This document shows positions 11,967-57,016 of a DNA stretch of 64,000 bases, piece by piece (the first letter of the stretch is position 1; each line of letters begins with the position of its first letter). The position numbers and the translations under genes were made by a program. The stretch is taken from the IMG/VR virus record IMGVR_UViG_3300029743_000281. The stretch is one strand, 5' to 3'. The stretch comes from a virus (taxonomy: Duplodnaviria; Heunggongvirae; Uroviricota; Caudoviricetes). The notes beneath the pieces are model-generated. The model did no database searches. It worked only from the letters and a program-made list of their open reading frames with translations, and was not told where the DNA came from.

Positions 11967-12073
11967 ACTTGTACCTTGCCTTTCCTGCCCTTTGCAGGGC
12001 ATAAAAAATAGGACGGTGCTCCGTCCTTGTGTAATGGTGTTCTATATAAACACAGCCGTGTGGCTGTGGGGTA

Positions 12074-14068: not shown

Positions 14069-14148
14069 GATTTCATTCTCCCTTCTGCTTGCTCAAAGGC
14101 TTACCAACGTCTTTTTCGCAAGCAGGGGGGGAGGATGAAAATCAGCTT

Positions 14149-14199
14149 TCAGGAGTACCCCCCCCCGAAAATTTCTTTCACATTATCGTTCATATTCAT
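14149..14199 (-). CDS. Candidate 16-aa upstream ORF (MNMNDNVKEIFGGGYS) spanning the G9 tract
   Basis: RBS GGAGTGATAACA then ATG. The GGG GGG GGG codons coincide with the homopolymer. Confidence 0.3.
   Translation of the reverse strand: MNMNDNVKEIFGGGYS
14158..14166 (-). repeat. Homopolymeric G9 tract (C9 on plus strand) in the fibre A-B intergenic module
   Basis: Read directly. A C7 run on the coding strand 26 nt downstream is its partial complement. Confidence 0.9.
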
Positions 14200-14214
14200 T
14201 GTTATCACTCCATT

Positions 14215-42034: not shown

Positions 42035-42231
42035 TATCCTCCGTATGCTTTGTTTTCCGTGGGGCTTCTCCCCTTCGGTGTGACTGTATATTACCGTCAC
42101 TGGGGAAGTATATCAAGCGGCTATGATACACGATCATTCGCCCACAGTCTTGTCGGATATGTGTATATCCTGCGCACGGAAGATCTGCCGCAACGAGCAA
42201 AAGCCCCCCGCAGGGAGCCCCCGCCCATATC
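42035..42231 (-). repeat. Repeated promoter-leader module, copy 1
   Basis: Coding strand TTGATA - 17 bp - TAATAT, conserved upstream GGGCGAATGATCGTGTATCATAGCCGC, leader hairpin GGGG..CCCC, RBS. Confidence 0.7.
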
Positions 42232-42516
42232 TCAGTGTGCGTTCCGGATGCACCATTCGATGGCGTGTCCGGCATCCGAGAAGACCTCATCCGAAATCTT
42301 CAGCAGTTCCAGTCGGCACTCGATCGATGAAAGCCCTTCCTTGGGGTCCTCAGCGAATCCGTAAACCGCAGCCTCCACGCCGCCCTTCCAGTTCGTTTTG
42401 GCAACCAGAACCCGGTCGCCAAACTGCAGGATGCTGTCGTTGCAGGGACTGAGCAGGTCGTAGTAGCTCTCAATGCTGATGCTGTGTTCCGGGAAGTTGT
42501 TCAGATGCTTCTTCAT
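42232..42516 (-). CDS. Hypothetical protein
   Basis: 94-aa ORF, RBS present. Confidence 0.5.
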   Translation of the reverse strand: MKKHLNNFPEHSISIESYYDLLSPCNDSILQFGDRVLVAKTNWKGGVEAAVYGFAEDPKEGLSSIECRLELLKISDEVFSDAGHAIEWCIRNAH

Positions 42517-42649
42517 GGTGAAATCCTCCGTGTTTTTTCATTCCGTAGGGTCTTCCCCTTTCGGTATGCACATATTACCGTCATGTGGGGAGGATAGCAA
42601 GCGGCTATGCTGCACGATCATCCGCCCGGAATACCGGGCAGAATGTACA
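42517..42649 (-). repeat. Repeated promoter-leader module, copy 2
   Basis: TTGCTA-17-TAATAT; same conserved core. Confidence 0.7.
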
Positions 42650-42868
42650 TCACTCTCCGTCCTCGGCATCCTGTTCAATGAATTCCCGGATTACTTCATA
42701 AAAGAGCTGGGGGTCGTATTCCAGCGGCTCACGACCTTGGGAAAAATCAATTTCAATCTGGTCCTTGACCATCTCCTTGGCAGCTTCCAGCGTGAAGCCA
42801 GCCTTATCCTCGTCATTCATATTGTTGTAGATGTCCACGATAAGGTCCATGACTCTTTCGTCGTTCAT
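42650..42868 (-). CDS. Hypothetical acidic protein
   Basis: RBS GGAGGAATGAGT then ATG (MNDERV). Confidence 0.5.
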   Translation of the reverse strand: MNDERVMDLIVDIYNNMNDEDKAGFTLEAAKEMVKDQIEIDFSQGREPLEYDPQLFYEVIREFIEQDAEDGE

Positions 42869-42987
42869 ACTCATTCCTCCGTTGCCCCACCACCTCGCCA
42901 CACAGCCCCTGTGTGGGGCTTGTGCGGTTTGGTTGGGGGAGTTTGTTGGCTTGCATCTGCGCCCCCTTTGTGGGGGCTGTGTCGGGC

Positions 42988-43182
42988 TTACTTCTCCGCC
43001 TTGCCCAGAAGGTAGGCTTCCTCCATGGCTTTCTGGATGCCCCAGACGGGAACCTCGATGAAATCCTCGCTGTCGCAGCCGCGCGCTTCAAGGTCGCCTC
43101 GGTTTTCCACCTCCACCATCAGGCGCTTTGCGATGTCCAGCAGGGCTTTCTGCTGCTTCCTGGTCAGGGTCTGCTTTTTCAT
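42988..43182 (-). CDS. Hypothetical protein
   Basis: 64-aa ORF directly downstream of repeat copy 3. Confidence 0.45.
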   Translation of the reverse strand: MKKQTLTRKQQKALLDIAKRLMVEVENRGDLEARGCDSEDFIEVPVWGIQKAMEEAYLLGKAEK

Positions 43183-43350
43183 GTCTATGTACCTCGCTTT
43201 CGTTTTTGTGACTGTATATTACCGTCACGTCCCGCAGATAGCAAGGCCGCAGATTACACGATCATTCACGCCAGGATCGGTGTATATTTGAGAGCCCTAG
43301 CACAGGAAAAGGGGCCGCCCTTTCAGGCAAGCCCCCCCGCAGTTTTCTGC
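43183..43350 (-). repeat. Repeated promoter-leader module, copy 3
   Basis: Same conserved core (ttaccgtcac ... gatagcaaggc ... acacgatcattc). Confidence 0.7.
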
Positions 43351-43800
43351 TCAGTAGTCTTCTTCCTCATCGTAGTCGTCTTCGCAGTCGTCGTAGTCCT
43401 CTTCCTCATCGCAGCTGTCGTCCCAGTCTTCCGCCATATCGCGGTAATCCCACATATCCTTGGTGGGCTGGCTGCGAAGGTCGGGGTTCTGCTTGATGTA
43501 GTCGGCAACCGCACCCTCAAGGGTATCCAGAACCTTTTCGTAGGCATCCTCGCTGAAGATCTCCCAAAGGGCTACGGTCAGGCTGCTGATTTCTGCGTTG
43601 CCCTTGGCGATCAGGAACCGGGCCGCGGGGTTGCAGGTTTCTTTGCCGTAGCCCTGGTTGACCATGTCGCCGTCGTTGAAGAATCGGTACCCGATCCGTG
43701 CGGTGGCTCTGACCAGTTCTCCGGCGAGGCTATCCGCCTTGCCGCTCGTGGGAACCAGTTCCTCGAAAAGCTTATTGATGCGGTTTTCATTCTTCGTCAT
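43351..43800 (-). CDS. Hypothetical protein with an extremely acidic C-terminal tail
   Basis: RBS GGAGGATACAAAA then ATG; C-terminus DSCDEEEDYDDCEDDYDEEEDY. Confidence 0.5.
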   Translation of the reverse strand: MTKNENRINKLFEELVPTSGKADSLAGELVRATARIGYRFFNDGDMVNQGYGKETCNPAARFLIAKGNAEISSLTVALWEIFSEDAYEKVLDTLEGAVADYIKQNPDLRSQPTKDMWDYRDMAEDWDDSCDEEEDYDDCEDDYDEEEDY

Positions 43801-43970
43801 TTTTGTATCCTCCAGCGTGTTTTTTGTGTTTTCCGTGGGGTTTTCCCTTTCGGTATGCACATATTACCGTCACTTTCGCACACTATCAAGCGGCTATGAT
43901 ACACGATCATTCGCCCCTAGATTTGTGTACATTCGGGCGGTATGACATTGGATGGACACGAGCAAAGGGC
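43801..43970 (-). repeat. Repeated promoter-leader module, copy 4
   Basis: Same conserved core. Confidence 0.7.
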
Positions 43971-44004
43971 CGGTTTCCCAGCCCCTTGCCCCTATCCATC
44001 CGGT

Positions 44005-44265
44005 TTATTTGCGGATTTCGAGGTAGCTTATATTGCCCCAGCAATCGGTGGTCTTGAACCGCACCTTCTGTTCGGTTTCCCGGTCGAGGGCTACCTTCCT
44101 CAGAAGTTTCATCTTCTGGATGCGCCGCAGAAGGTCTGCTGCGTTCTTGGCATCTTCAATGGCGTCTTGGATCTCGACCACCGAGCAGTCGGTACCGTAC
44201 CAAAGGTTGCTGAGTGCCTCCGGAATGCCGTTGGCAGTGAAAAGTCGGATGTTCGTATAGGTCAT
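44005..44265 (-). CDS. Hypothetical protein
   Basis: RBS AAGGAGATAAACACC then ATG. Confidence 0.5.
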   Translation of the reverse strand: MTYTNIRLFTANGIPEALSNLWYGTDCSVVEIQDAIEDAKNAADLLRRIQKMKLLRKVALDRETEQKVRFKTTDCWGNISYLEIRK

Positions 44266-44371
44266 GGTGTTTATCTCCCTTCGTTTTTGTGACTGTATAT
44301 TACCGTCACTCAGGGCTGATAGCAAGCGGCTAATGTACACGATCATCTGGCTCTTCACTCCGGAAAATGTG
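44266..44371 (-). repeat. Repeated promoter-leader module, copy 5 (shorter)
   Basis: Same conserved core. Confidence 0.65.
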
Positions 44372-44926
44372 TCACTTTATGCCGCCGTGGTATTCCTCGA
44401 TATACTGCCTTCCGTCCGGTTCGGTGACCACCGCAGGGTAGCGCACACGGCTGCCGTGCCGGGTCAGGAGCTCGGCGGCAAGGTCTGCCAGTTCTCCGAG
44501 AATCTCCATGTTCCACTCGAGGCGGTCATCCTCCGCCATGACCTTGCAGAATTCATACGCAGCGTTGTAGATCTCATCGTTGCGGGCACTCTGGGCATCC
44601 GAAAGTTCCAGTTCCTCCTCCGTCTCCGGCACCGTAGGCTTCGGGCACTCCGCCCAGCGCCCTTCGTAGGTCTCGCCGGCCTCACAGCCGTCGGCGTCGT
44701 ATTCGTTGACCCGAACCCACCGGTTCGACTGGAACACTCGCTCGGTGATGCCATTCTTCCGGATGCTGAGCATCACCTTCTCTCCATTTTCATTGACACC
44801 CCACAGGGCGTCCGGGTAATCCCCGAACTCCTGAATCATCTGACGGCGAGTGGCAAGGTCGCCAAAATTGGCGGCCAATACATTGAGCCGGATCGTGTCC
44901 AGCTTCTTGTCCAGTTCCATTTTCAT
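44372..44926 (-). CDS. Hypothetical protein
   Basis: 185-aa ORF with RBS. Confidence 0.5.
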   Translation of the reverse strand: MKMELDKKLDTIRLNVLAANFGDLATRRQMIQEFGDYPDALWGVNENGEKVMLSIRKNGITERVFQSNRWVRVNEYDADGCEAGETYEGRWAECPKPTVPETEEELELSDAQSARNDEIYNAAYEFCKVMAEDDRLEWNMEILGELADLAAELLTRHGSRVRYPAVVTEPDGRQYIEEYHGGIK

Positions 44927-44943
44927 ATTCGTTCTCCCCTTTC

Positions 44944-45150
44944 TCAAAAATCCAAGGTCTCCAGAACCTCGTCCGTGCCGGTCTCCCAGTCGTGGCGGGT
45001 CAAGCGGATGCGGCTGTACAGCTCGGTGCTGTCCGGCTCATCGAAAAGCCGGAAGCATTCCCTGGCAAACCCCTCGTCGGTGTACTGCTGGGTCTCGTCG
45101 GGCTGGCCGTCCAGCCGGGTGAAGGTGATCTCGTAGGTGTAGCGTTCCAT
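44944..45150 (-). CDS. Hypothetical small protein
   Basis: RBS GGAAAGGAAGGAAAAAC then ATG. Confidence 0.45.
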   Translation of the reverse strand: MERYTYEITFTRLDGQPDETQQYTDEGFARECFRLFDEPDSTELYSRIRLTRHDWETGTDEVLETLDF

Positions 45151-45355
45151 GTTTTTCCTTCCTTTCCGTTTCGGTATGTGCATATTACCGTCGTTTCGGC
45201 ATAATAGCAAGGCCATAAAACGTCATATTATCGACGATCATCAGCCCATATCTTTGGTGGATCTATGTCGATAAATGGCCTTGATAAATATGTGTTTTAG
45301 AGCGAATATACAGACACCGAAAGGAAAACACACACAGAAAACGGAGGCAAACACC
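45151..45355. repeat. Repeated promoter module, copy 6, arranged as a divergent pair
   Basis: The minus-strand copy serves 44944..45150. A plus-strand TTGATA-17-GAATAT plus a similar leader serves 45356..45604. Confidence 0.6.
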
Positions 45356-45604
45356 ATGAAAAAGACCATCAGCGAGATCGAAAGCATCATCGAGGACCAC
45401 ATTGCAGAGCTTGAAGAAGAATACGAGCTGGACATTTTCGACCGCAACGACATCCGGGAAGAAGAATACCGCAAGGGCGGTTGGAAGCACGACCCCTTCC
45501 CCGAAGAGCTGGAGGAGGAAGAGGACGAGGAAGAAGAATGGCATTACATGAGCCTTGAGCAGCAGCTCTACGAAGTCGGCATGAGCATGCGGGATTTCCT
45601 TTAA
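45356..45604 (+). CDS. Small acidic protein (plus strand)
   Basis: RBS GGAGGCAAACACC then ATG; EEEEDEEEE stretch; terminator hairpin CCCCAGC-AAG-GCTGGGG at ~45623-45640. Confidence 0.5.
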   Translation: MKKTISEIESIIEDHIAELEEEYELDIFDRNDIREEEYRKGGWKHDPFPEELEEEEDEEEEWHYMSLEQQLYEVGMSMRDFL

Positions 45605-45714
45605 GAGAATCCGCCAAGGAACCCCCAGCAAGGCTGGGGCTGTTCCCCGTTGTCCCCGTTTTCCGTTGACCATATACACAGTTCTGCCGCCTAAAGATCG
45701 TGGAAGATCCTGCT

Positions 45715-45840
45715 CTTTCCCGGCTTGCTATTCTTGCAAACCAGAGCTAATATACAGTAAACTGGGAAAGGATTCTCGATGATCCGAGGCCCCCCACCAG
45801 CCCACAAGCCAGCCCCTCCTGCCTAGGCAGAAGGGGCCGT
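45715..45840 (+). ncRNA. Candidate short plus-strand transcript (sRNA or micro-ORF MIRGPPPAHKPAPPA)
   Basis: TTGCTA-17-TAATAT at 45715-45750. Terminator: near-palindrome CCCCTCCTGCCTAGGCAGAAGGGG then CCGTTTTCTTTATT. Confidence 0.3.
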
Positions 45841-45845
45841 TTTCT

Positions 45846-46217
45846 TTATTCGGGCTGTGTGCCGTCGCTTGTTTGGATGGCCGCAAGTCCCGATGCGGTG
45901 CGAACGAAAAGCTCCGGATTCCAGAACCGTTTTCTGAACCTGTCCATGAGTTCCTGCGGCAAGTCCGTGAAGTCTTCCTTGCCCAACCCGCAGAGGAAGA
46001 AGCGGCCGCGGATCGGCTGTCTCAGTTCCCGGATATACCGGCTGAACAGCTTGTCCGTAAACAGTCCGTTGTCATCCGTGACCAGGGCGACCGGTTCCGG
46101 CCACGGGTAGGTTGCCGTGATGCAGTCGCAGTCCAGCACCTTATAGTACTCTTCCAGCGTGGGCTGGATATCGATCTCCTTCGGATGTTCCATCGGCTCG
46201 ATCAAAAGCACCTTCAT
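45846..46217 (-). CDS. Hypothetical protein
   Basis: Start MKVLLIEPMEHPKE overlaps the upstream stop. Confidence 0.5.
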   Translation of the reverse strand: MKVLLIEPMEHPKEIDIQPTLEEYYKVLDCDCITATYPWPEPVALVTDDNGLFTDKLFSRYIRELRQPIRGRFFLCGLGKEDFTDLPQELMDRFRKRFWNPELFVRTASGLAAIQTSDGTQPE

Positions 46218-46672
46218 TCGACCCACCCCGCTTTCACGATTGCCCAGTCGGTCAGCGATGTCTTTTCCCCAAGAAAGTCTTCCATCGCTTCGACCGTACC
46301 GCAAGTGTTGCACACCATGATCTCTGCGTAGCGGCTGATGGCTTGCTGTTGGTGGTCGTAACAGTCCGGCTCAGCGCCGCACCGTGGGCAACGTGGGCCC
46401 GTCTGTCGCGTCTTACCGAGGTGGTCGAGCGATTCCTTTACCTCGGCCTCGGACGCCACACGGTGGCAACTGTCCGCGCCGTAAGCAACGTTCAGGCTGC
46501 CGCCTGTATCCCAGGAAACCATCACATTGCCGGCATCGTCCACACCACGGCAGGTTCCCTGCGTGCCCAAGGCCGGTGCCTGGGCATCTTCCATTCGGTC
46601 CAGCACCACACGGCAGCCGACCGGGAACTGTGTCCGCAGAGTTTCTACGGTCTTTCTATCCGGAAATCTCAT
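46214..46672 (-). CDS. Hypothetical protein with C-terminal Cys4 zinc ribbon
   Basis: RBS AAGGAGGTGCAGGG then ATG; 'CPRCG...CNTCG'. Confidence 0.5.
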   Translation of the reverse strand: MRFPDRKTVETLRTQFPVGCRVVLDRMEDAQAPALGTQGTCRGVDDAGNVMVSWDTGGSLNVAYGADSCHRVASEAEVKESLDHLGKTRQTGPRCPRCGAEPDCYDHQQQAISRYAEIMVCNTCGTVEAMEDFLGEKTSLTDWAIVKAGWVE

Positions 46673-47151
46673 CCCTGCACCTCCTTGATCATCTTCTCCG
46701 CGAGTTTCTTGTTGTTGGTACACTTCTTCAGTGCGCCCTCCAAGATGTGCATCGGGAAATGAAATGCTTTATAGCCATCGTGAAGGACTCGATAGTAGTA
46801 CAGACTCGGCATTTTCTGCCCATAGTCGTGTTCCATGATGTAGACCATGGCGATGACGGTCATGGGCTCCGCATCCTTGCTCACCACCTCGACCGTCATA
46901 TTTTCCTTGCGGTAGTAGTGCGGGAAGCCCTCATAGATGTCGAGGTTCTTCTCATCGCCAGCGGAGATTTCCCACACCAGGACCGGTGTGTTCTTTCCCT
47001 TGTTCGGCAGGATGGTCGCGCAGCCGTGGAAGGCCAGCTCCCAGTCTTCCAGAACAGCCTGGCCCACAATGCGGGCATCCGGGCACCGCTGTGCCATCTG
47101 CTCCACCGACAAGTTGCTGCCGTATGCGATGTAATACTTCTTTTCGTTCAT
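46669..47151 (-). CDS. Gamma-glutamyl cyclotransferase-like (GGCT/AIG2 family) protein 1
   Basis: 'YYIAYGSNLSVEQM' signature N-terminus; 160 aa. Confidence 0.75.
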   Translation of the reverse strand: MNEKKYYIAYGSNLSVEQMAQRCPDARIVGQAVLEDWELAFHGCATILPNKGKNTPVLVWEISAGDEKNLDIYEGFPHYYRKENMTVEVVSKDAEPMTVIAMVYIMEHDYGQKMPSLYYYRVLHDGYKAFHFPMHILEGALKKCTNNKKLAEKMIKEVQG

Positions 47152-47283
47152 AGTCGCTTGCTTCTTTCGTTTCCGCTGTTGTCTGGCGGTATGCTATATA
47201 TGCCTCTGTTTTGCCCGAATAGCAAGGCCAATGTGCATCATATCCTGCACAATGATTTCCTCACAGGATCGGCAAAATTGTAC
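47152..47283 (-). repeat. Repeated promoter-leader module, copy 7
   Basis: Same conserved core. Confidence 0.65.
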
Positions 47284-47820
47284 TCAGTCGATTTCTTTGA
47301 GGAACTCCACCGCTGCCGCCTTTCCGATGCTGGAAGACAGCCCGCTGTGCAATGTATCTGTCGGGAATCCCCACTCCGTATACCCGTCTGCCAACAAGTC
47401 GAAGTACTCATGGCTGGGGCAGCCGAGCTGCCTTTCTTCGTGCAAGATGTATGCCATACAGGTTTTCAGCTTCTTCATCCGATGCCCATCCAGATTCCAG
47501 ACGGGAAGCTGGAACTGCTTCTTGTAATAGTACCGAGGGCAGCCCTCATACCGATCCAGCAGCAGTTCATCAAACTCGGAAAGCAGCCATACCACAGCTG
47601 GGACGCTTTCATTGGCATCCTGCTCGATGGTGGCGTAGCACCCGGTCTTACTTTTCTTGAACAGGAGTCGGTATCCGTAGATCTCGGTAACACCGACCGG
47701 CACCGCATAGGGGCATCTGTGCCCCATCCGTTCCATGTCAAGGTTGCTGCCGTAGGCAAGATAGTACCGAGACGGCTTTCTGCTGATCCCGCCCTTGTCG
47801 AACCGGAAGTGATCAATCAC
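47284..47820 (-). CDS. Gamma-glutamyl cyclotransferase-like (GGCT/AIG2 family) protein 2 (GTG start)
   Basis: 'YYLAYGSNLDMERM'. Proposed GTG start overlaps the upstream stop (GGTGATTGA). The longer ATG ORF would overlap gene 47813..48043. Confidence 0.65.
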   Translation of the reverse strand: MIDHFRFDKGGISRKPSRYYLAYGSNLDMERMGHRCPYAVPVGVTEIYGYRLLFKKSKTGCYATIEQDANESVPAVVWLLSEFDELLLDRYEGCPRYYYKKQFQLPVWNLDGHRMKKLKTCMAYILHEERQLGCPSHEYFDLLADGYTEWGFPTDTLHSGLSSSIGKAAAVEFLKEID

Positions 47821-48043
47821 CGACCTCACCGCCTTCCGCTGCGGAAAAGTCCACGCCGTCAAAGTCCTCAGCTTCCAGAACGATCTGTCCGTTGTGCCAC
47901 CAGTCGCTGACCGCCTGGACGGCCTCATCCATCGTGGGTTCCTTGATCTCAGATTCGTTGACCTCGACCACCCGTTTGAGGGTCTCGGTGATGACCACCC
48001 GGAACGTTCTGCCGGGTGCGGTTTCTCTGGTTTCATTTTTCAT
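47813..48043 (-). CDS. Small acidic protein (76 aa)
   Basis: RBS AGAAGGAGGGCGATACGCC then ATG. Confidence 0.55.
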   Translation of the reverse strand: MKNETRETAPGRTFRVVITETLKRVVEVNESEIKEPTMDEAVQAVSDWWHNGQIVLEAEDFDGVDFSAAEGGEVGD

Positions 48044-48113
48044 GGCGTATCGCCCTCCTTCTACCGCCTAAAGGGCGGTTGCCCGCCCGATAGGTGCCCG
48101 TGCAAGTCGGCGC

Positions 48114-49049
48114 TTATGCGTTGCGCCAGCTTGCGTTGCCCTCCATATTCCGCAGAAGGATCTCCCGTGCTGTTTTGAACTCGTCCCCGATGAAGCCCAG
48201 CCGAAGCATCCAGCACCGCATTGCGTATTTCTCATTGTCAGTCTGCTGGGGCTTGGGGCTTGCGGTCTTCACCATCTTGGCAAGCTGGCTCATTGCGAGG
48301 CAAAGCTGGATGTAGGCTTTCAGCTCACCGGCGTGAAGTCCGTTCTGCTTGCCGTCGCTGGGGTCGGCAAACTGGAAAAGCCGGAATTCAATCGTGCCCT
48401 TGGTGAAGGTGGCGTGGAGGTTCAGCATATGGTATCGGCTTTCATTGTAATGTGCCGTTCTGCCGTAGTTTGCGTGGTTGCCGGCGTACCAGATGTCGGC
48501 AAGCTCGGTCATGGTCGTCGGCTTTCTCTTGTTCAGCTGGTCAAGGAATCGGGGGTCGACCACTCGGCAGTACTGTCCGGTTCTGCCTGCATCGATGCGA
48601 ATCGCTCTGCCGATCTGTTCTTCGTGGGCGGCCATGATGTTGACCAGATTCCGCAGAGTCTTGGGGGTGTGGCTGCCCTTGCCGATGTGGATGTGAACGC
48701 CGCATCCCCGGCTGGGGCTGGACTTTGCGCCAGCCTTGCGGAGCAGTCGGATGATCGCCTGCAAGGTCTCGATGTCCTCGTAGGTAAGGATGGGGGTCAC
48801 CATCTCGCACTTTTCAGCTTCCGGTCCGTGGATGCTGATGTCTCGCTGGAATTTCCAAACCCTGCCCTGCTGGTCCTTGCAAGCCCAGCTCATGTACCCG
48901 TACTCGCCGGCTGCGTACCATGCGGTCGTTCCGAAGAACTCGGCAACCTTTCTGGCTGCTTTCTCGCGGGTGATGTTGTTCATCTCAACCTCGACCCCGA
49001 TGGTCTGCATCTTCATGGCTTCGATCTGCTCTCTGGTCTTATCGTTCAT
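48114..49049 (-). CDS. Amidoligase (Amidoligase_2-like, glutamine-synthetase-like fold)
   Basis: 'QTIGVEVEMNNITR...GCGVHIHIG'; RBS AAAAGGAGATAAACACC then ATG. Confidence 0.7.
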   Translation of the reverse strand: MNDKTREQIEAMKMQTIGVEVEMNNITREKAARKVAEFFGTTAWYAAGEYGYMSWACKDQQGRVWKFQRDISIHGPEAEKCEMVTPILTYEDIETLQAIIRLLRKAGAKSSPSRGCGVHIHIGKGSHTPKTLRNLVNIMAAHEEQIGRAIRIDAGRTGQYCRVVDPRFLDQLNKRKPTTMTELADIWYAGNHANYGRTAHYNESRYHMLNLHATFTKGTIEFRLFQFADPSDGKQNGLHAGELKAYIQLCLAMSQLAKMVKTASPKPQQTDNEKYAMRCWMLRLGFIGDEFKTAREILLRNMEGNASWRNA

Positions 49050-49240
49050 GGTGTTTATCTCCTTTTGTCTTGTTCTGTTCCCCTTGCGGTATGTGCATAT
49101 TACCGTCATGTGGGGAGGATAGCAAGGCCATAAAGGGTCAAATAATCACCGATCATTCAGGGCAAAGATCGTGTACATTATGGCGAGAAATACACTTGAT
49201 ACTGTACATTTTCAGAGTTAATATCGGTACAATGGAAGAA
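49050..49240 (-). repeat. Repeated promoter-leader module, copy 8
   Basis: Same conserved core. Confidence 0.7.
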
Positions 49241-49364
49241 GCTCTCTCTTATCCGGCGGCCCCCATAAGGGGTCAGGAGCTTACGCTCCCGCCTCCTGCG
49301 CCTGGGGTGCGCCGTCAGCCCCACAGTCGGGCTGTGTGGGGGCTTCCGCTGCCGCTTCGGCCGT

Positions 49365-50411
49365 TTAAACGCCGCCGTGTGTCGCCTGTTTTGCGACTTT
49401 CAGCGCATCTCGTTTTGCCTTTTCCTTGACCCGGAACTTTTCGGCATCTTCCTTGGTGCGGAATGCCGCATGACCGGTAAGGTTCTGCATCAGGAGCTTG
49501 CGGATGGTCTTGTGTTCATCCCCGTTCAGACCCAGTCGGATCAGCCAGATGCGAAGTGCGTACTTCTCATTGGCATCGTTGACGGTCTTTGCCTGAATCC
49601 GCTTTTGGGTAACTGCCATCCGGTTCATAGCGGAACAAAGTTCTGTGTATGCACTCACCTTCTCCTGCGTCAGCGGACCGGCAAAGGTCAGGCTGATTTT
49701 TTCTGCCGTGATAGAGATTCCAGTCATGCCGGTTGTGCCGGCACCCAGGCGGTACTCTTCCAGCTCATCCAGCATCTCCTCCACCGTGCGGGTAGATGCC
49801 TGTTCCAAGGCATCCAGCAGGCTGTTCGATACCGAGAAGTTCGTGCCCATTGCTTTGTTCAACAAAGGACCGCGGCTGTACATCAGGTTCAGGAAGTTGC
49901 GGATGCTCTGGGCTGTATGCCCCGCCATCGGTAGGCTGATGGTCAGTTCGTCCACATCCTGCAAGGTCGGCTGTTCGGTCGGAACAGGCGCCTCATCCGC
50001 ATCGGTGTCGTTCACGGTGTCCATCGGCTCATCCTCGTCCACCGGTTCCTGAACTTCCGGGGATTCCTCGGCAGTTGCGCCCGACTCCTCAGTGGGCTGA
50101 GTATCCTCTGTGCTGTCCACGGTCTCATCTGACTCTTCACACTCCGATTCCGTGGTCTCCCCGCAGGCAGCTTCGGTCTCCGGGGTCTCCACGCCTTCTT
50201 CACGGATGATGCCCTCGTCCAGCAGCGTCCGGATGATCTCCGGCGCAGCGTTATCTTCGATCACAAGCGTCCCCTCCTTTTCTACGGTGTAGCTGCCGAC
50301 AATGTAAGCGCACCGCGGCATGAAAGTGTACCGGGAATGAAGCCCGGTCAACTCCATCAGGCGGCTTACCAGCACCTTGCGATCCTCGATGTTCAATGCG
50401 TACTTTTTCAT
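49365..50411 (-). CDS. Amidoligase-like paralog with a long acidic insert
   Basis: C-terminal 80 aa align with amidoligase 48114..49049 (NEKYALRIWLIRLGLNGDEHKTIRKLL vs NEKYAMRCWMLRLGFIGDEFKTAREIL). Confidence 0.55.
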   Translation of the reverse strand: MKKYALNIEDRKVLVSRLMELTGLHSRYTFMPRCAYIVGSYTVEKEGTLVIEDNAAPEIIRTLLDEGIIREEGVETPETEAACGETTESECEESDETVDSTEDTQPTEESGATAEESPEVQEPVDEDEPMDTVNDTDADEAPVPTEQPTLQDVDELTISLPMAGHTAQSIRNFLNLMYSRGPLLNKAMGTNFSVSNSLLDALEQASTRTVEEMLDELEEYRLGAGTTGMTGISITAEKISLTFAGPLTQEKVSAYTELCSAMNRMAVTQKRIQAKTVNDANEKYALRIWLIRLGLNGDEHKTIRKLLMQNLTGHAAFRTKEDAEKFRVKEKAKRDALKVAKQATHGGV

Positions 50412-50619
50412 AGCTTTGTGCTCCTTTGCCTTTGTTTTTTCGGTAGCACATATATCGCTCTAATTCGATAATATAGCAAGGCCATTTAGCGACATTTCTC
50501 ATATTCGACCCATTACACAAACCGTGCCAAACACGACTGTGCAGGATCGTCCGATATGTATGCCCACTGTATCACGGGGGCATTCTAACCTCGCAATACG
50601 GTGGGCCGTTTTATAGGAT
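50412..50619 (-). repeat. Repeated promoter-leader module, copy 9
   Basis: TTGCTA-17-GATATA; same conserved core. Confidence 0.65.
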
Positions 50620-51429
50620 TCAGCCAGCTCCGCCCTCCAGCACAGCGATGCGACGCTCAAACTCTGCCGCCTGGTTTTCCAGTGCTCCGAGTCTCTCGGC
50701 ATCCGTCTTGGGCTTTTCCTCGGTTTCTCCGTCAAGGATCAGGTAGCGTTCCATGACATATCCGGGAATGGTGTCGTAGGTTACAGCACACCAGCCGTCT
50801 CCCTGCCCGGTCACATCCAGCCGGGTACCATTGGGAATCCATGCCAGCCGGTCTGCGGTCTTGGACGGAGCTTGACGCAGACTCAATCGCCCGCCCGTGA
50901 CGGTCGCCTTGTTTCGGGTCTCCTGCATCTTGACTTCGCTCATGTCTGTTTCCTCCTGAGTCGTTCCATAGTCGATGCCCTTCAGCCGGCCACCGTATTT
51001 CCACTTACCGAGCGTTGCATCCCGGTGGATGCTGTTGCCGTTCACCGTAGTGGAACAGTGGGTGATTTCCAGCGGACGCACCTTGGTGACGATGCCTACA
51101 TGATAGTAGTCCAGCAGATCACCGCCATCCGCCTTGTAGCGGTCCGGCAGATTGTAGCTGCTGTCTCCCGGTTTTCGGGCTTTGTAGACGATCTCACCCA
51201 CAAACAGATCAGCAGATTTGATCTCTGCAAAGTCGGTCATCTGTTTCCGGGCTGCGTAGTTACTGCCGTGGATGCCATTCCAGCCTCCACCAGCCCTGCG
51301 GACCGCACCGATGATGAGACCGATGCAGTCACAGGTGCCATCCGTGCCGCTGCCGCCGATGCGATAGTCCGGTTTCGTAGCACAGATGGCTTCGAGCTGC
51401 TCCAGAAAAGCAGCTAGTTTGATGCTCAC
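50620..51429 (-). CDS. NlpC/P60-like cysteine peptidase with C-terminal SH3b domain
   Basis: 'GTCDCIGLIIGA' resembles the NlpC/P60 Cys motif DCSGLV. 'DYYHVGIVTKV' resembles the His motif. C-terminal SH3b-like region. Confidence 0.55.
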   Translation of the reverse strand: MSIKLAAFLEQLEAICATKPDYRIGGSGTDGTCDCIGLIIGAVRRAGGGWNGIHGSNYAARKQMTDFAEIKSADLFVGEIVYKARKPGDSSYNLPDRYKADGGDLLDYYHVGIVTKVRPLEITHCSTTVNGNSIHRDATLGKWKYGGRLKGIDYGTTQEETDMSEVKMQETRNKATVTGGRLSLRQAPSKTADRLAWIPNGTRLDVTGQGDGWCAVTYDTIPGYVMERYLILDGETEEKPKTDAERLGALENQAAEFERRIAVLEGGAG

Positions 51430-53678
51430 TCCGATTCACTTCCGTTCACGGGCAATCCGGCCGCCCATGCGATGCCGGACAGTACAAAAAAGACACACGG
51501 CAGCGCGACACCATTGCCCCAGAGCTTATACTCTGCGGCATCCGAATACGGATCAGCCAGCCACTTACGGATCTGCTTTTCCGTTTTCGGTTTCTTGGCA
51601 TGGGTCACAAGTCTGCGGTGTGTTTCAAACGCATCCTGCCAGAAGGCAAGTTCCTCCTCGGTGGGGTTCTCTGTAGCGAGGTCATGGCACCACCAGTCCG
51701 GAAAACCTTGCAGCCGTGCGCACTCGGTCGGGGTCAGACGGCGGACAGTATAGGATACGGGAGCCGGCTGTGCCTCCGGGTTGTCGATGACCAGCCGGTC
51801 ATTGAAAGCATCCTGCCCGTTGAAGCCGCTGGGATGCGCCCCAGTCGCCACCGTTCCCGACACGCCATCGTTCAGGTGCGGCACCGGTGCTATGGTAGTG
51901 GGGTCCTTAAAGTCCCGGGCCATAAGGGTGGGAGATACATTCTCCTCGACCCTCATGAAGGAGCCGGTGGTCATAGCGTAGACATCTTCCGGTGCGCAGA
52001 CTGCGTGACGGTCAGTGGCATCCAGCGTAAAGCAGACATCTTCGTTGATGCCGTCGCCTTGCGGACCATTCTCGTCTTTGCGACCGATCATGTTGCCCTG
52101 CAGTACGAAGGTCTGCATCTGATCGCTCCGGGTCGCCATGAGCGCACCGGACTTTCCGTGCAGGTCGATCAGCTCATTGCGCTGATTTACATGGAATGCC
52201 GTCACGTCATCCGGCTGCGCCACAAAGGTCTGCTGTTTCATTCCCGGCTGTGCAGACAGCGAACCCGCCGTCTCGCCCAGATCCCGGACTTCATCCCGCT
52301 GGTTCTGGGTAAAGGCAACCGTCTCGACCACACAGATGCCGCCCTGGTTACAGGTCGGGTCACCGCCGCTGCGATCCAGCGTCCGGGAAGTTTCCGCTTC
52401 ATAGAATCCGCTGTGGGGGTTATCCGACATCATGGAATGGCTGGCTTTCGAGCAGACACCGTAGCACTTCGGGACGAATACAGTTTGGTCATTGTTGCAG
52501 CCGAGGGTGGCGGACTTATCCTCCTGCCAGATGGCGCCCTTGCCGCCTCCTTCACACCCAGAGCGAATCTTCAGCGTGACGGCCGGCAAGTTTTCCACCC
52601 CTTCCCTACTGTTTTCCACGCCATCCAGAACCAGCGGAACATTGCCGCCGCCCGTACCGCATCTACTGGTCAGAGTCTGTACCTTGCCATCCTTGGAAAT
52701 TTTCACTCGACTGTCAGTCGGATGATTTTCCAAAGCGATGGCGGCAGGCACGACTCCGGCCCGGAGTGTAGGAGAACGTTCTTCCTCATATCCGATGCTC
52801 CTCGCATTGGCGGAGTGTTCGGTGCAAAAACCTGCGGATTCCAAAACGCAAGGCGGGTGATGTGCCTCTGCACGGAGAATGGAGGTCACCTCTTCGGTCA
52901 CATCCATCCTCTCCCCACCCTGATCGTTCAGGCATATTCTTCCGCAGCAGCCTGCCGTTCCAGTGCCGCCTTCAGCACCGGAGGCAGCTCTTTGCCACGC
53001 ACGGAAGCTCTCCGCAGAATACCCAGACACGCCTTCGGACTCAAATAATACTTTTGGAGCACCGTGGTCTGCAAAATCTGCGACAAGGTAGATGCGTTTT
53101 CTCCTTTGGGGTACGCCCCACCATTGAGCGTCAAGAACTCGATATGCGACGCTCCATCCGTCTCCCAGATAGTAATCTGCATCGGGCCAGCCTTTTTTGT
53201 CAGGCGCAGGCACCTCGGTGGACGGTTCCTTAACACCGATGACGGCTTCGAGGACTGCCTTGAAGTCCTGTCCTTTGTTTGAGGAGAAGGCCCCCGGCAC
53301 ATTCTCCCACACGATAAATCTTGGTTTTGCTCCATTGGTCTTACACCTCATTTCCTTCACGATTCGAATCGCTTCATAGAACAGGCTGGACCGTGAACCA
53401 TCCAGACCGTCTCTTTTACCGGCAATGGACATATCCTGACAAGGACTGCCAAAGGTGATGATATCCACCGGCGGCAAGTCTGCGCCGTTGATGGCGGACA
53501 CATCTCCGTAGTGCTTCACCTCCGGCAGACGCTTGGTCGTGACCCGGATGGCGAAGGGCTCCACTTCGCTGCTCCACAGCGGCGTGATACAGCCTGTCAG
53601 TAAACCGCCCAAAGGAAAACCCCCGGAGCCATCAAAGAGGCTGCCGAGGGTCAGTTGGATATTCGATTCGGTGCTCAT
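51426..53678 (-). CDS. DNA (cytosine-5)-methyltransferase, large (750 aa)
   Basis: Motif I 'FDGSGGF', motif IV 'GSPCQDMSIAG', motif VI 'ENVPG'. Confidence 0.85.
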   Translation of the reverse strand: MSTESNIQLTLGSLFDGSGGFPLGGLLTGCITPLWSSEVEPFAIRVTTKRLPEVKHYGDVSAINGADLPPVDIITFGSPCQDMSIAGKRDGLDGSRSSLFYEAIRIVKEMRCKTNGAKPRFIVWENVPGAFSSNKGQDFKAVLEAVIGVKEPSTEVPAPDKKGWPDADYYLGDGWSVAYRVLDAQWWGVPQRRKRIYLVADFADHGAPKVLFESEGVSGYSAESFRAWQRAASGAEGGTGTAGCCGRICLNDQGGERMDVTEEVTSILRAEAHHPPCVLESAGFCTEHSANARSIGYEEERSPTLRAGVVPAAIALENHPTDSRVKISKDGKVQTLTSRCGTGGGNVPLVLDGVENSREGVENLPAVTLKIRSGCEGGGKGAIWQEDKSATLGCNNDQTVFVPKCYGVCSKASHSMMSDNPHSGFYEAETSRTLDRSGGDPTCNQGGICVVETVAFTQNQRDEVRDLGETAGSLSAQPGMKQQTFVAQPDDVTAFHVNQRNELIDLHGKSGALMATRSDQMQTFVLQGNMIGRKDENGPQGDGINEDVCFTLDATDRHAVCAPEDVYAMTTGSFMRVEENVSPTLMARDFKDPTTIAPVPHLNDGVSGTVATGAHPSGFNGQDAFNDRLVIDNPEAQPAPVSYTVRRLTPTECARLQGFPDWWCHDLATENPTEEELAFWQDAFETHRRLVTHAKKPKTEKQIRKWLADPYSDAAEYKLWGNGVALPCVFFVLSGIAWAAGLPVNGSESE

Positions 53679-54445
53679 ACAGCCTCCTCTCCGAGCATCT
53701 GCTCTTTGGCTTTCAGGTAGAAATCCCTTGACACTTCAAATCCGTAGCTGTCACGTCCCAGTTCTCTGGCAGCCCGGAGCGTTGCACCGCTGCCGGCGCA
53801 AGGGTCGATGACCACATCTCCGGGATCGGTAAAGATCTTGATCAGGCGTTTCAGCACGGACACCGGTTTCTGGGACGGATGGATCTTCGGATAGTCCTTG
53901 CCATCCCGTTTCCAGTCAAACCAATTGAAGATCATGTGGGACTTGCCGTCCTCGCCGACGTTGTTGAACTTCGGGAGCTTGCCCCGGTACAAGACCAGCG
54001 CATACTCCGTTGCACCCACGATCTTCATGTTGGCTTTCAAAACCTGCGGGCTGTAGTTCTTACAGAAGGTCAGCGGGATATAGTTCTTGAAGCCGTACTT
54101 CTCAGCTTCCGTGATGACCTTGGGGATCTGCTGGAACGCACAGAACACGATCATGCACGGTGCGCCCTTTTCCCCTTTCATGGGTTCTTTCTTCAGCAGC
54201 CGGTTACAGAAATGGAAATATTCTGCGATATTGAAAGTGAAGTCGGTGTTGAATGCCGCTTTCCGGGCCTTATCGCTCTCTCCATTCCGGTTATCTCCGT
54301 CCACATACCAATCCGGGCGGCTGGCGTAGAAGTCCGACCCGATGTTATACGGGATGTCGGCGATCACCAGCTGTGCCTTGGGGATGTTGTAGGACTTGAA
54401 GTTCTGGAAGTTGTTATGGAACAGGACACATCTGGGTTCAGTCAT
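53675..54445 (-). CDS. DNA N6-adenine/N4-cytosine methyltransferase (N6_N4_Mtase family)
   Basis: 'LVIADIPYN' DPPY-type motif and C-terminal 'VIDPCAGSGATL'. Confidence 0.8.
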   Translation of the reverse strand: MTEPRCVLFHNNFQNFKSYNIPKAQLVIADIPYNIGSDFYASRPDWYVDGDNRNGESDKARKAAFNTDFTFNIAEYFHFCNRLLKKEPMKGEKGAPCMIVFCAFQQIPKVITEAEKYGFKNYIPLTFCKNYSPQVLKANMKIVGATEYALVLYRGKLPKFNNVGEDGKSHMIFNWFDWKRDGKDYPKIHPSQKPVSVLKRLIKIFTDPGDVVIDPCAGSGATLRAARELGRDSYGFEVSRDFYLKAKEQMLGEEAV

Positions 54446-55706
54446 CTGCGTCCTCCTGTTCCGGCTGAAAGGACGCCACCTCATCGAACTTCAGCTTTTG
54501 ACCGTCACGGAGGACATACACATCCTCGTAGCGACCTTCGCTGTGTTCGATATAGCGCTTGACGATAACATCCACGAACTTGGGGTCAAGCTCAATGCCC
54601 CGGCACACCCGGTCAGTCTCCTCACAGGCGATCAAGGTCGAGCCGCTGCCGAGGAAGGGGTCAAGGACGATGCCGTTGGTCATGGTGGAGTTGCGGATGG
54701 GATAGCTCATCAGGCCGATGGGCTTCATGGTCGGGTGATCTTTGTTTGCTTTGGGACGGTCGTACTCCCAGATGGTGGTCTGCTTACGGTCGGAGTACCA
54801 CTGGTGCTTGCCCTTCAGTTTCCACCCATAGAGGCAGGGTTCATGCTGCCACTGATAGGGACTGCGACCCAGCACCAGAGCATTCTTTTTCCAGATGCAG
54901 CAACCGGACAGATAGAATCCCGCATCCTTGAACGCCTTTCGGAAATTCAGACCTTCCGTATCGGCGTGGAAGATGTAGATGGAACCGTCATCCGCCAGAT
55001 GACCGTGCATCTGCTTAAACGCCGCCAGCAGGAACTCGTAGAATTCCGAGTCGCCCATGTTGTCGTTCATGATCTTACCGGCCGATTCTTCCACATCTAC
55101 ATTGTACGGGGGATCGGAAAGCACAAGGTTGGCCTTCACGCCGTCCATCAGGGTATCGTAGCACTCAGCCTTCGTAGAATCACCGCACAGAACACGGTGC
55201 CGGCCCAGCATCCAAAGGTCACCTGCCTGCGAGAAGGTCGGCTGCTTCATCTCAGATTCCACATCGAAGTCATCTTCCTTGATGTCCTTGTCGTGGACCT
55301 TGTTGAACAGCGTCTCGATCTCAGGCGGCTCAAAGCCCGTCTTGCCCAGGTCGAAGTTGGAGTTCTCGATATCCTTCAGCAGGTCAGCCAGCAGGGAATC
55401 ATCCCACGCGCCGGTGATCTTGTTGAGCGCAATGTTCAGAGCTTTTTCTCGGTTCTTGTCGATGTCCACCACCGCACAAGGCACTTCGGTATAACCCAGT
55501 GCCATCGCAACGGTCAGGCGTTGATGGCCGCCGATGATCGTCATATCGGCATTGACCACCAGCGGATCGGCAAAACCAAACTCCTCAATGGAGTTCTTAA
55601 TCTTCTCGTACTCCTTGTCCCCCGGCTTCAGCTTTTTTCGGGGATTGTATGCAGCCGGCTTGAGTACGGTCACCGGCAGCATTTTCAGTTCAGCAGTTGC
55701 TTTCAT
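54438..55706 (-). CDS. ParB-like nuclease domain fused to a DNA methyltransferase
   Basis: N-terminal ParB-like 'LKPAAYNPRK...GGHQRL'; C-terminal 'LVLSDPPYN' and 'VLDPFLGSGSTLIAC'. Confidence 0.8.
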   Translation of the reverse strand: MKATAELKMLPVTVLKPAAYNPRKKLKPGDKEYEKIKNSIEEFGFADPLVVNADMTIIGGHQRLTVAMALGYTEVPCAVVDIDKNREKALNIALNKITGAWDDSLLADLLKDIENSNFDLGKTGFEPPEIETLFNKVHDKDIKEDDFDVESEMKQPTFSQAGDLWMLGRHRVLCGDSTKAECYDTLMDGVKANLVLSDPPYNVDVEESAGKIMNDNMGDSEFYEFLLAAFKQMHGHLADDGSIYIFHADTEGLNFRKAFKDAGFYLSGCCIWKKNALVLGRSPYQWQHEPCLYGWKLKGKHQWYSDRKQTTIWEYDRPKANKDHPTMKPIGLMSYPIRNSTMTNGIVLDPFLGSGSTLIACEETDRVCRGIELDPKFVDVIVKRYIEHSEGRYEDVYVLRDGQKLKFDEVASFQPEQEDADD

Positions 55707-55950
55707 GTAGTTCCTCCCAGTTCAGATTCACACACGCATGACCTCGGAGAACGGTACGAAAAAGGAGCCGAACTCAAAGCCCGACTCCAATTCATCGCTG
55801 TCCCCGCCCATCTCCGACTGCGGTTTTTCCGTAATCGGATACCATTCCGGGTCTTTCTCGTTCATGGATGCAAGGACCCTGTCCTCTGCATGGTCAATCG
55901 CGTGTACACAGATGCCTGCGGTGTTGCAGACTGCAAATACGCCAATCACT

Positions 55951-56253
55951 TTATTTTCCAATGCTGCTCTCTCCCTTCGCCCTGCCTTTATTGGCACAGG
56001 CTCGACTGCAATATTTTCTCGGAAGTCCGTACTGGTGCCGATAGGAAAACTCTCTGCCGCACATCGGGCAGACCTTTGACCACACGGTCTTCCAGTTCTG
56101 CGGTCTTGGGTGGGTGTTGTTCCACTTGGATCGGCATTCCGGGGAACAGAATTTTCTCGGTCGTCCCCGATGGTTCGGAACGATGGCAGCACCACACTGC
56201 GGACAGAAGGAAAATGCCATGTCCTTGATCATCTCGGCCGTGTAATCTTCCAT
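55951..56253 (-). CDS. Zinc-ribbon protein (two CxxC pairs x2)
   Basis: 'CPQCG...CSPEC...CPMCG...CSRAC'. Confidence 0.5.
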   Translation of the reverse strand: MEDYTAEMIKDMAFSFCPQCGAAIVPNHRGRPRKFCSPECRSKWNNTHPRPQNWKTVWSKVCPMCGREFSYRHQYGLPRKYCSRACANKGRAKGESSIGK

Positions 56254-56362
56254 CCATCCTCACCCCGTCCTCATTTTTCGCCGTTTCTATGTCAGTTCCA
56301 GTGGAAAATCTCAAAAAGCATACGAAAAGAATCGAAGCGGCAGCCGGCCCTGCCCCGCCGGG

Positions 56363-57013
56363 TTAGCTTGTTTTTGCGGCGTCCGGCTGCTGCTGGCTTC
56401 TCCATGTCCCGGAACAAGCTAAAACGTGCGAAAAAGCCCATGTTGCAAGGGTTTTCACACGCTTTGGTTCATTTCGGGGGAAAACAAAAGGCACCGGAGC
56501 GTTCACCCCGATGCCATCATCTTCACCTTGTTCATTTTGCGCCGTTAATTCCGGGACCCCCGGCCTATGAATTTTGCGTTTTTTTACACGAAAGGGGCCA
56601 CCGGTCTTCTGTTGACTTCGCCACAGAGAAGTGACCCCGGCCCCCGGTGGGGGTCTGTAGCGGTACACCGGGTGGATGTCTTTGGTCAGAGTCTTGCGGT
56701 CATGGCAGGCTTTGCACATCGGCTGCCAGTTTGCTTCGTCCCAGAATAGTCCGGAATCGCCACGGTGCGGTGTGATATGGTCTACCACGGTGGCTTTCGT
56801 GTATCTCCCCTGCCTCATGCACTCGGCGCAGAGCGGATGGGCTTGGAGGTACTGCCTGCTTATTTTTTGCCACTGTCTTGTATAGCCACGCTTACCCGCT
56901 GGGCGTGTGACTTCCGGGTGCAGCGGCAGATGCTTCGCACAGTAAAGGCTGCCCGGCTCAACCAGCTCCGGGCAACCGGGGTGTCGGCACGGCACCTTGG
57001 GTCTGCGGGGCAT
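56363..57013 (-). CDS. HNH endonuclease
   Basis: 'CAECMRQGRYTKATVVDHITPHRGD...NWQPMCKACHDRKT'. Confidence 0.75.
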   Translation of the reverse strand: MPRRPKVPCRHPGCPELVEPGSLYCAKHLPLHPEVTRPAGKRGYTRQWQKISRQYLQAHPLCAECMRQGRYTKATVVDHITPHRGDSGLFWDEANWQPMCKACHDRKTLTKDIHPVYRYRPPPGAGVTSLWRSQQKTGGPFRVKKRKIHRPGVPELTAQNEQGEDDGIGVNAPVPFVFPRNEPKRVKTLATWAFSHVLACSGTWRSQQQPDAAKTS

Positions 57014-57016
57014 GGG

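Follow-up and report, generated by a model that had tools for sequence, protein, structure and literature searches.

Eight adjoining minus-strand genes, at positions 45846-51429 of the 64,000 nucleotides of the virus record IMGVR_UViG_3300029743_000281 that were analysed (that whole stretch is called the window below), form a typical copy of an accessory block that is conserved among Heliusvirales-type temperate phages of gut Clostridia. Central to the block are an amidoligase of the Amidoligase_2 family that is predicted to be active, an upstream paralogue of it that is very probably a pseudoenzyme, and two proteins of the gamma-glutamyl cyclotransferase (GGCT)/AIG2 type. The explanation that we favour, on which our judgement is evenly balanced, is that the block serves transient gamma-glutamylation of an amine-bearing host or phage target, for host takeover or counter-defence. 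An earlier sequence-only reading of this DNA had proposed a gene cluster for peptide or gamma-glutamyl chemistry with two amidoligases, two GGCT-like proteins, a peptidase and small acidic proteins. All eight of its open reading frames are confirmed, and public gene calls on identical contigs have the same boundaries (269, 348, 311, 76, 178, 160, 152 and 123 residues). In reading direction the products, with what supports each assignment in brackets, are:

50620..51429, minus strand: 269 residues, CHAP/NlpC-P60-like domain, SH3b domain and C-terminal helix (SH3_3, structure model)
49365..50411, minus strand: 348 residues, degenerate amidoligase paralogue, 'psAmid' (PHROG 2443, hhalign)
48114..49049, minus strand: 311 residues, Amidoligase_2 enzyme, predicted active (PF12224, PHROG 2443)
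47813..48043, minus strand: 76 residues, acidic protein of the DpnD/PcfM family (PF14207)
47284..47820, minus strand: 178 residues, GGCT/AIG2-like copy 1, GGCT1 (GGACT, AIG2_2, PHROG 2520)
46669..47151, minus strand: 160 residues, GGCT/AIG2-like copy 2, GGCT2 (GGACT, PHROG 2520)
46214..46672, minus strand: 152 residues, DUF4314 with a C-terminal CxxC...CxxC zinc ribbon (PF14192)
45846..46217, minus strand: 123 residues, DUF3846 protein, last of the overlapping run from GGCT2 through DUF4314 (PF12957)

The ligase is the most conserved product of the block, at 66-69% identity versus 26-56% for its neighbours (26-30% for the paralogue and 41-47% for GGCT). It matches PF12224 over profile positions 2-244 of 245 with E 8.7e-54 and 183.4 bits (cut-off 22), and PHROG 2443 at 2.5e-107. 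All the motifs that are invariant in its clade are retained, namely GVEVE, E-x-x-T-P, HIHIG, RYHMLNL and EFR, and residues E20, E22, E82, T85, P86, H119, H121, R205, H207, N210, E221 and R223 are invariant in 10 homologues of 61-87% identity. The family-conserved motifs to which these belong (G-x-E-x-E, E-x-x-T-P, H-x-H, R-x-H..N and E-x-R) are treated here as active-site candidates. The claim of an amidoligase is thus well founded, and the protein is predicted from these motifs to be an active ATP-dependent carboxylate-amine ligase. Is there a solved structure on which to place the motifs? Neither the ligase sequence nor the profile made from it had a relevant match in the PDB, and hence there is no sequence-related structure.

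The call of two GGCT/AIG2-like proteins likewise stands, both copies being above the Pfam cut-offs with the family signature kept. For GGACT (PF06094, cut-off 22.8) the values are 5e-8 and 34.0 bits for GGCT1 and 2e-11 and 45.0 bits for GGCT2; for AIG2_2 (PF13772, cut-off 27) they are 28.9 bits and 1.6e-6 for GGCT1 and 29.0 bits for GGCT2; and for PHROG 2520, a gamma-glutamyl cyclotransferase family, they are 1.3e-34 and 3.4e-41, respectively. The two copies are 37% identical to each other (BLASTP 3e-29). GGCT1 has AYGSNL and LDRYEG, GGCT2 has AYGSNL and LDIYEG, and across 181 unique GGCT members from related loci AYGSNL and D-x-Y-E-G are at least 95% conserved. As in human GGCT, YGSNL is presumably substrate-binding and the glutamate of D-x-x-E-G presumably catalytic. 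By these signatures both genes look as if they encode intact enzymes. Profiles therefore support both enzyme assignments, and one of the two amidoligase-type proteins keeps the candidate catalytic residues.

How constant is the company that these genes keep? A scan of viral contigs with the ligase gave at least 599 confirmed relatives, and a scan of one genome per bacterial species gave 460 matches, nearly all in Clostridia; the block is thus common in the human gut. Its closest cultured carriers (86-87% identity) are Blautia faecis DFI.3.66, Faecalibacterium intestinale CLA-AA-H281 and Clostridium fessum SNUG30386, so that cultured lysogens with close copies are to hand. The open reading frames of 160 loci were scored with profiles made from the window's genes, and the counts given here and below are for the 102 with sufficient flank. 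The loci are the best matches to the window's ligase (their own ligases being at least about 66% identical to it), and the sample is biased to its relatives. The paralogue is upstream of the ligase in 96 of the 102 and a GGCT gene downstream of it in 100, with the complete trio in 95. Two GGCT genes are present in 50 and a DpnD gene in 49, its occurrence tracking GGCT duplication; a C5 methylase gene is upstream in 86, and of 99 loci 92 have a DUF4314 gene inside the block. Duplication of the amidoligase and of GGCT, which the sequence-only reading regarded as unusual, is on these counts nothing of the sort. Among Clostridia phages the block is rearranged, with DUF4314 in different positions, DpnD present in some and absent from others, and GGCT duplicated; the pairing of ligase and GGCT persists.

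Published annotations give further examples. In Arthrobacter cluster AL phages an amidoligase and AIG2/GGCT are annotated as adjacent, with an RNA helicase and a GTPase as neighbours (PMC5513430). A prophage-like module of C. difficile Tn6164 has a virulence-related protein, an amidoligase, AIG2/GGCT and terminase (PMC3485107), two 'amidoligases' and a GGCT are annotated in prophages of C. clostridioforme LM41 (PMC11318856), and a Pseudomonas-like phage has an amidoligase and GGCT along with an ATP-grasp enzyme and a glutamine amidotransferase (PMC10945688).

The 348-residue protein had been read as a second amidoligase-like protein with a huge acidic insert. Homology and acidic insert are both upheld; a second ligase it is not. 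Pfam, even at E<=10, and NCBIfam give no match to it. PHROG 2443 ('amidoligase') matches it at 9.5e-39, and hhalign aligns it to the amidoligase profile, over ligase residues 113-314, with a probability of 99.8% and E 3e-29. In that alignment HIHIG is replaced by ISLPM, RYHMLNL by TGMTGIS and EFRLFQF by SLTFAG, and nothing aligns to the ligase's N-terminal GVEVE and E-x-x-T-P region. Because the H-x-H, R-x-H..N and E-x-R motifs are lost, it is very probably a pseudoenzyme, a non-catalytic paralogue of the ligase. In its structure model (predicted local distance difference test score, pLDDT, 75.8) the N-terminal alpha/beta unit is folded, residues 74-150 are disordered, and the C-terminal half, which is homologous to the ligase, is again folded. 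The fold of the model resembles those of YbdK, glutamate-cysteine ligases and Dop, and from a viral structure library there is one weak but sensible match, an Arthrobacter phage amidoligase. The isoelectric point (pI) of the protein is 4.6, and the 77-residue linker has 29 aspartates and glutamates with no lysine or arginine; among homologues the length of the linker ranges from almost nothing to about 150 residues. A profile search gave 3683 cluster representatives at E<=0.001, part of which may be true ligases matched via a C-terminal extension common to both proteins. The long homologues were checked for informative domain fusions and had none. The name that NCBI gives to homologues is 'virulence-related protein'.

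The window's copy of the paralogue stops at an in-frame TAA, and most homologues are about 32 residues longer (380-383 residues; ...PTQPDCGAD...EAGA). A hairpin at 49317-49339, repeated at 42898-42920, overlaps the region of this lost tail (49270-49380), and so conservation of the tail may be at the RNA or DNA level rather than that of protein.

Could any of the small acidic proteins be a tag, or a substrate, as had been proposed? Their acidity is real, the 76-residue protein having a pI of 4.28, and nothing marks them for either role, since they belong to generic mobile-element families, DpnD is in fewer than half of the loci, and no Pup-like C-terminus is conserved. The 76-residue protein matches DpnD/PcfM (PF14207) at 5e-12, and the stop of its gene overlaps the GGCT1 start. 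The C-termini of its homologues differ (EFTGREDGEADV, DFSAAEGGEVGD and others); they do not share the conserved C-terminal GGQ or GGE of a Pup-like tag, and the block has no such conserved small protein. The proposed Cys4 zinc-ribbon protein turned out to be DUF4314 (PF14192, 1.1e-25) with the ribbon as an addition, for which there is a weak, sub-threshold match to the Lar family (E 0.005). The final gene of the block encodes DUF3846 (PF12957, 8.9e-23).

The first gene of the block needs to be set apart. Its product was taken to be an NlpC/P60 peptidase with SH3b, and of that the SH3b part holds (SH3_3, PF08239, 1.6e-10, 41.5 bits, cut-off 27). For the catalytic part neither NLPC_P60 (PF00877) nor CHAP gave a Pfam match at E<=10 with the whole protein or with residues 1-150, nor did NCBIfam, and a profile of 28 homologues found only SH3 domains among PDB sequences (solved SH3b domains at 1.9e-8). 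In an AlphaFold2 model made with the 28 homologues (pLDDT 82) an alpha/beta domain is followed by an SH3-like barrel and then by a terminal helix. Foldseek ranked the CHAP+SH3b endolysins Ly7917, PlyGRCS and PlyPy first among PDB structures and then Trichomonas NlpC1/2, which are NlpC/P60+SH3b, so that the fold fits CHAP endolysins at least as well as NlpC/P60. These matches have E 2e-6 to 9e-4 and probability 1.0; a different orientation of the two domains keeps their template modelling (TM) scores low, at 0.2-0.35. C35, H110 and H124 are invariant in the 28 homologues and would fit a candidate Cys-His-His papain-like site. On this modelling the assignment is CHAP/NlpC-P60-like at the superfamily level only. 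The gene was considered as that for the main endolysin of the phage and rejected, a full lysis cassette being present at 9111-12002.

The suggestion that this peptidase extends the gamma-glutamyl theme has to be given up: its gene is in nine of the 102 loci, all in the clade closest to the window, that gene begins with a GTG that overlaps the C5 methylase stop codon, and the fold matches CHAP endolysins no less well than NlpC/P60. Because so few loci have it, we place it outside the conserved system, as a separately acquired, late and lineage-specific insertion of a gene resembling those for cell-wall hydrolases. The exact protein is found in 1705 index blocks of public assemblies. In two contigs a mobilisable or conjugative element has gained a piece of the block by recombination, and there the piece adjoins a relaxase, a NikA-like protein and a pair of OLD-nuclease and UvrD-helicase resembling Gabija. 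In one of them (GCA_027494245.1 JAKSHL010001468.1) the C5 methylase is truncated and the GGCT broken, and the identical peptidase, paralogue, ligase and DpnD are present as well; the other (ERZ914771 k127_102445) has a truncated methylase, the peptidase and a fused paralogue only.

Ten promoter-like modules are found on the minus strand at 42088-50495, before small genes upstream of the terminase. Their usual form is a ATGATCGTGTA box, CTTGCTA, 17 nucleotides and TAATAT; those at 50479 and 47226 have a deviant -10 hexamer and no upstream box. That three such modules are interleaved with the genes of the block was correctly noticed before:

50441..50495, minus strand: promoter-like module upstream of the paralogue, repeat family D5, with TTGCTA at 50479-50474
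49055..49156, minus strand: promoter-like module upstream of the ligase, repeat families D1, D3 and D5, with an upstream ATGATCG box, TTGCTA at 49125-49120, a 17-nucleotide spacer and TAATAT at 49102-49097
47185..47241, minus strand: promoter-like module upstream of GGCT2, repeat family D5, strict motif match, with TTGCTA at 47225-47220 and TATATA at 47200-47195

The modules define three units, the paralogue alone, then ligase, DpnD and GGCT1, and then GGCT2, DUF4314 and DUF3846. The genes within each of the latter two overlap or are 70 nucleotides apart, and a simple scan for terminator-like sites on the coding strand inside them found none. Conservation of the modules beyond the two hexamers suggests a dedicated regulator. 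Transcription from copies on the plus strand at 45724 and 49195 would run antisense to the DUF3846 gene and to the paralogue gene at its 3′ end, respectively. An inverted copy at 45264-45286 is by a small, very acidic plus-strand open reading frame (45275-45604; 82 residues in public gene calls, with an EEEEDEEEE run) that converges on the block.

What might the enzymes do together? Gene content, homology, the keeping or losing of conserved motifs and the linkage are shown directly, and the gamma-glutamyl chemistry, the part played by the dead paralogue and the biological purpose are inferred. The known characterised enzymes with the fold of the ligase activate the gamma-carboxylate of glutamate, and enzymes with the GGCT fold cleave gamma-glutamyl amides that have a free alpha-amine, with formation of 5-oxoproline. 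By analogy, the ligase would activate a glutamate-type carboxylate at the expense of ATP and couple it to an amine, to give a gamma-glutamyl amide, and GGCT would take off a gamma-glutamyl group with a free alpha-amine by cyclisation to 5-oxoproline, so freeing the amine. An amine-bearing target in the cytoplasm, of host or phage, would in this way be transiently gamma-glutamylated. The non-catalytic paralogue with its hypervariable acidic linker would most likely be a regulatory or adaptor subunit, or else an independent binding protein. A glutamine amidotransferase beside a phage amidoligase would presumably be another bond-remover, since such a partner is reportedly regarded in the Pfam description as a thiol peptidase. 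Such an arrangement is annotated in other phages (PMC10580990, PMC10945688). Host takeover or counter-defence is favoured as the purpose because the proteins look cytoplasmic (the cluster proteins have no hydrophobic segments, signal peptides or membrane segments), because of the promoter-like modules, and because the neighbours DpnD/PcfM, DUF4314 with its zinc ribbon and DUF3846 are typical of the establishment regions of mobile elements. PADLOC models of known defence systems match none of the eight proteins (E<=0.01). The predicted chemistry, that of an ATP-dependent gamma-glutamyl ligase and a 5-oxoproline-forming remover, is narrow enough for direct testing.

A more specific version, to which we accord a low probability, is reversible single-residue tagging by the trio: the ligase would add gamma-glutamyl to lysines or other amines of a host immune or housekeeping protein, the paralogue, by way of its fast-evolving acidic linker, would recruit the target or mimic nucleic acid as a decoy, and GGCT would be the eraser. 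Were it true, it would be a minimal, phage-encoded analogue of pupylation for counter-defence, and the first function for Amidoligase_2.

Several considerations weigh against transient gamma-glutamylation by the block. A ligase and a cyclotransferase that act simultaneously on the same free gamma-glutamyl compound would be an ATP-burning futile cycle. As the sequence-only reading had it, the pairing has been predicted computationally without experimentally defined function; the searchable literature yielded no experiment on any family member, and sequence reveals no substrate. The counter-defence context is guilt by association only. The loci counted share similar ligases, so that their linkage could in part be inherited gene order and not functional selection. 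Streptococcus phage Javan102 and a Peptoclostridium acidaminophilum prophage each have the paralogue with DUF4314, between methylases and terminase, and have neither ligase nor GGCT there, and a homologue of the paralogue is alone in Clostridium butyricum; its function may hence be unrelated to that of the ligase. In Faecalibacterium phage FP_Taranis the ligase is present and no GGCT was detected. The Amidoligase_2 gene of that cultured phage (NC_047914), of 38% identity, is beside a helix-turn-helix immunity region, with no dead paralogue detected nearby, and the phage could offer experimenters a way into the family.

An alternative, which we consider unlikely, is that these are auxiliary metabolic genes, with ligase and GGCT acting on free small molecules (glutamate with a polyamine or an amino acid) as in the gamma-glutamyl cycle or the PuuA/PuuD pathway of E. 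coli, and redirecting host pools of glutamate, 5-oxoproline, nitrogen or polyamines during infection or lysogeny. Characterised members of the fold, glutamine synthetase, glutamate-cysteine ligase, PuuA and YbdK, are mostly small-molecule enzymes, PafA being the exception. The promoter-like modules before the genes are moron-like, PHROGs puts the GGCT family in its category 'moron, auxiliary metabolic gene and host takeover', and a role in nitrogen metabolism has been speculated for a phage amidoligase with GGCT (PMC10945688). However, the ligase is unusually conserved among phages of very different Clostridia, and no host pathway partner is nearby. Also, simple metabolite chemistry gives no reason to expect a dead paralogue that is conserved and has a fast-evolving acidic linker, and the objection of a futile cycle applies to such chemistry directly, as both enzymes together would act on a free compound.

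It is improbable that the block belongs to an island for DNA or nucleotide modification, in which ligase and GGCT would build or trim an amino-acid-type adduct on phage DNA or a nucleotide precursor, together with the adjacent methylases and S-adenosylmethionine (SAM) synthetase. The thought is prompted by the SAM synthetase and three methylase genes directly upstream in the window, and by the frequency of the upstream C5 cytosine methylase in the related loci. At the homologous position in Javan102 the order is methylases, dead paralogue, DUF4314 and then a gene with the Nmad4 'nucleotide modification associated' domain. An Amidoligase_2 gene on a C. perfringens plasmid is beside genes for DNA ligase and RNase H, and the window's ligase is basic (pI 9.3). 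Against this, the usual enzymes of hypermodification (base hydroxymethylase, kinase, TET/JBP, glycosyltransferase or DpdA) are missing from the window genes that were scanned, the methylases may be adjacent because a single broad phage group has kept its gene order, and the pair in Arthrobacter phages adjoins an RNA helicase and GTPase instead (PMC5513430).

May there be no single system at all, merely unrelated accessory genes that share a conserved slot in a phage lineage? The occurrence of paralogue and DUF4314 without the enzymes, the FP_Taranis ligase without a detectable GGCT, the separate promoter-like modules before paralogue, ligase and GGCT2, and a sample biased to relatives of the window's phage would all be in keeping with that. 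Recurrence of the ligase-GGCT pairing in unrelated phages of Actinobacteria and Proteobacteria (PMC5513430, PMC10945688) would not. Nor would its survival of rearrangement within Clostridia phages, and co-travel of this kind is distinctly improbable.

Very improbable is remodelling by ligase, GGCT and peptidase of gamma-D-glutamyl peptidoglycan stems or precursors, for lysis or superinfection exclusion, as GGCT needs a free glutamyl alpha-amine and the D-Glu of the stem peptide is, as is generally known, acylated, the peptidase is absent from 93 of the 102 loci, a complete holin, LysM/SH3 and amidase-glucosaminidase cassette is elsewhere in the phage, and no cluster protein has a signal peptide or membrane segment, to be set against the cell-wall-binding SH3b and endolysin-like fold of the peptidase and the cell-wall role proposed for the phiEco32 amidoligase, as related in papers citing Iyer et al. 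2009 (PMC11318856, PMC10580990).

The source phage is a temperate, siphovirus-type, Heliusvirales-like phage of gut Clostridia. Its closest annotated relatives are human-gut Candidatus Heliusvirales phages with Lachnospiraceae, Ruminococcus, Oscillospiraceae and Acutalibacteraceae as hosts (PMC11283538). Small and large terminase, portal, HK97-type capsid, a 1957-residue tape measure, tail proteins and holin are encoded in the window, as are a LysM/SH3 protein, an amidase-glucosaminidase endolysin and several serine recombinases. From about 42 to 54.5 kilobases almost all genes are on the minus strand, and the block is between the genes for DNA methylases and those for terminase. On its 5′ side are a D5-type primase-helicase, the SAM synthetase, an HNH endonuclease, a ParB-fused N6 methylase, a second N6 methylase and the C5 cytosine methylase of 750 residues; the SAM synthetase and three DNA methylases are clustered at 51426-58084 (minus), and the C5 methylase has a long insert. 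At the phage end (1056-9027, minus) there are four large serine recombinase genes, of 653, 404, 503 and 366 residues, the last three of them adjacent, which is unusually many integrase-type genes for one prophage, and a gene for an AAA_25 ATPase (3027-3998) is among them. Two tail-region proteins of 664 and 872 residues (12074-16833, minus) each have a C-terminal GDSL lipase/acylhydrolase domain, which suggests esterase activity on a host surface polymer.

How does the block compare with what is known? Pupylation in Actinobacteria, with PafA, Dop and Pup, differs in several respects. The window's paralogue has lost its motifs, whereas Dop is an active deamidase and depupylase; the block is without a conserved small protein ending in GGQ or GGE; and its remover is GGCT, which would act only on a single glutamyl with a free alpha-amine. 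The gamma-glutamyl cycle (glutamate-cysteine ligase and GGCT), PuuA/PuuD and BtrJ/BtrG each combine an ATP-dependent gamma-glutamyl ligase with a remover, as by analogy the block would, and BtrG and GGCT share the fold of the window's two GGCT proteins. However, the substrates of those pathways, small molecules or carrier-bound, are known, and the pathways have additional genes, of which none is encoded in the block; BtrJ of butirosin synthesis belongs to the ATP-grasp enzymes, unlike the window's ligase, which is of the glutamine-synthetase type. The layout of the peptidase, a putative catalytic domain with SH3b, is that of its best structural matches, the CHAP+SH3b endolysins (Ly7917 from a Streptococcus suis prophage, PlyGRCS and PlyPy) and Trichomonas NlpC1/2, and its own Cys, His and His are invariant among its homologues. 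It differs from those endolysins in being without Pfam CHAP or NLPC_P60, in being encoded outside the lysis cassette with an overlap of the methylase stop, and in its extra C-terminal helix.

Closest of all is what Iyer, Abhiman, Burroughs and Aravind reportedly predicted in 2009 (Mol Biosyst), namely neighbourhoods of Amidoligase_2 and AIG2/GGCT in Firmicutes phages. By the account of it in citing papers, the same two enzyme families are adjacent in a Firmicute prophage here and nothing essential is different; features of the window are that the first 'amidoligase' is degenerate, that GGCT is duplicated and that a CHAP/NlpC-like SH3b gene is inserted upstream. The amidoligase-AIG2 neighbourhood of Firmicutes phages is thus already known and routinely annotated, and the window is a typical member. 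Relative to that prediction as cited the additions are modest: the very probable pseudoenzyme nature of the upstream paralogue and its independent distribution, and the finding that the peptidase does not belong to the system.

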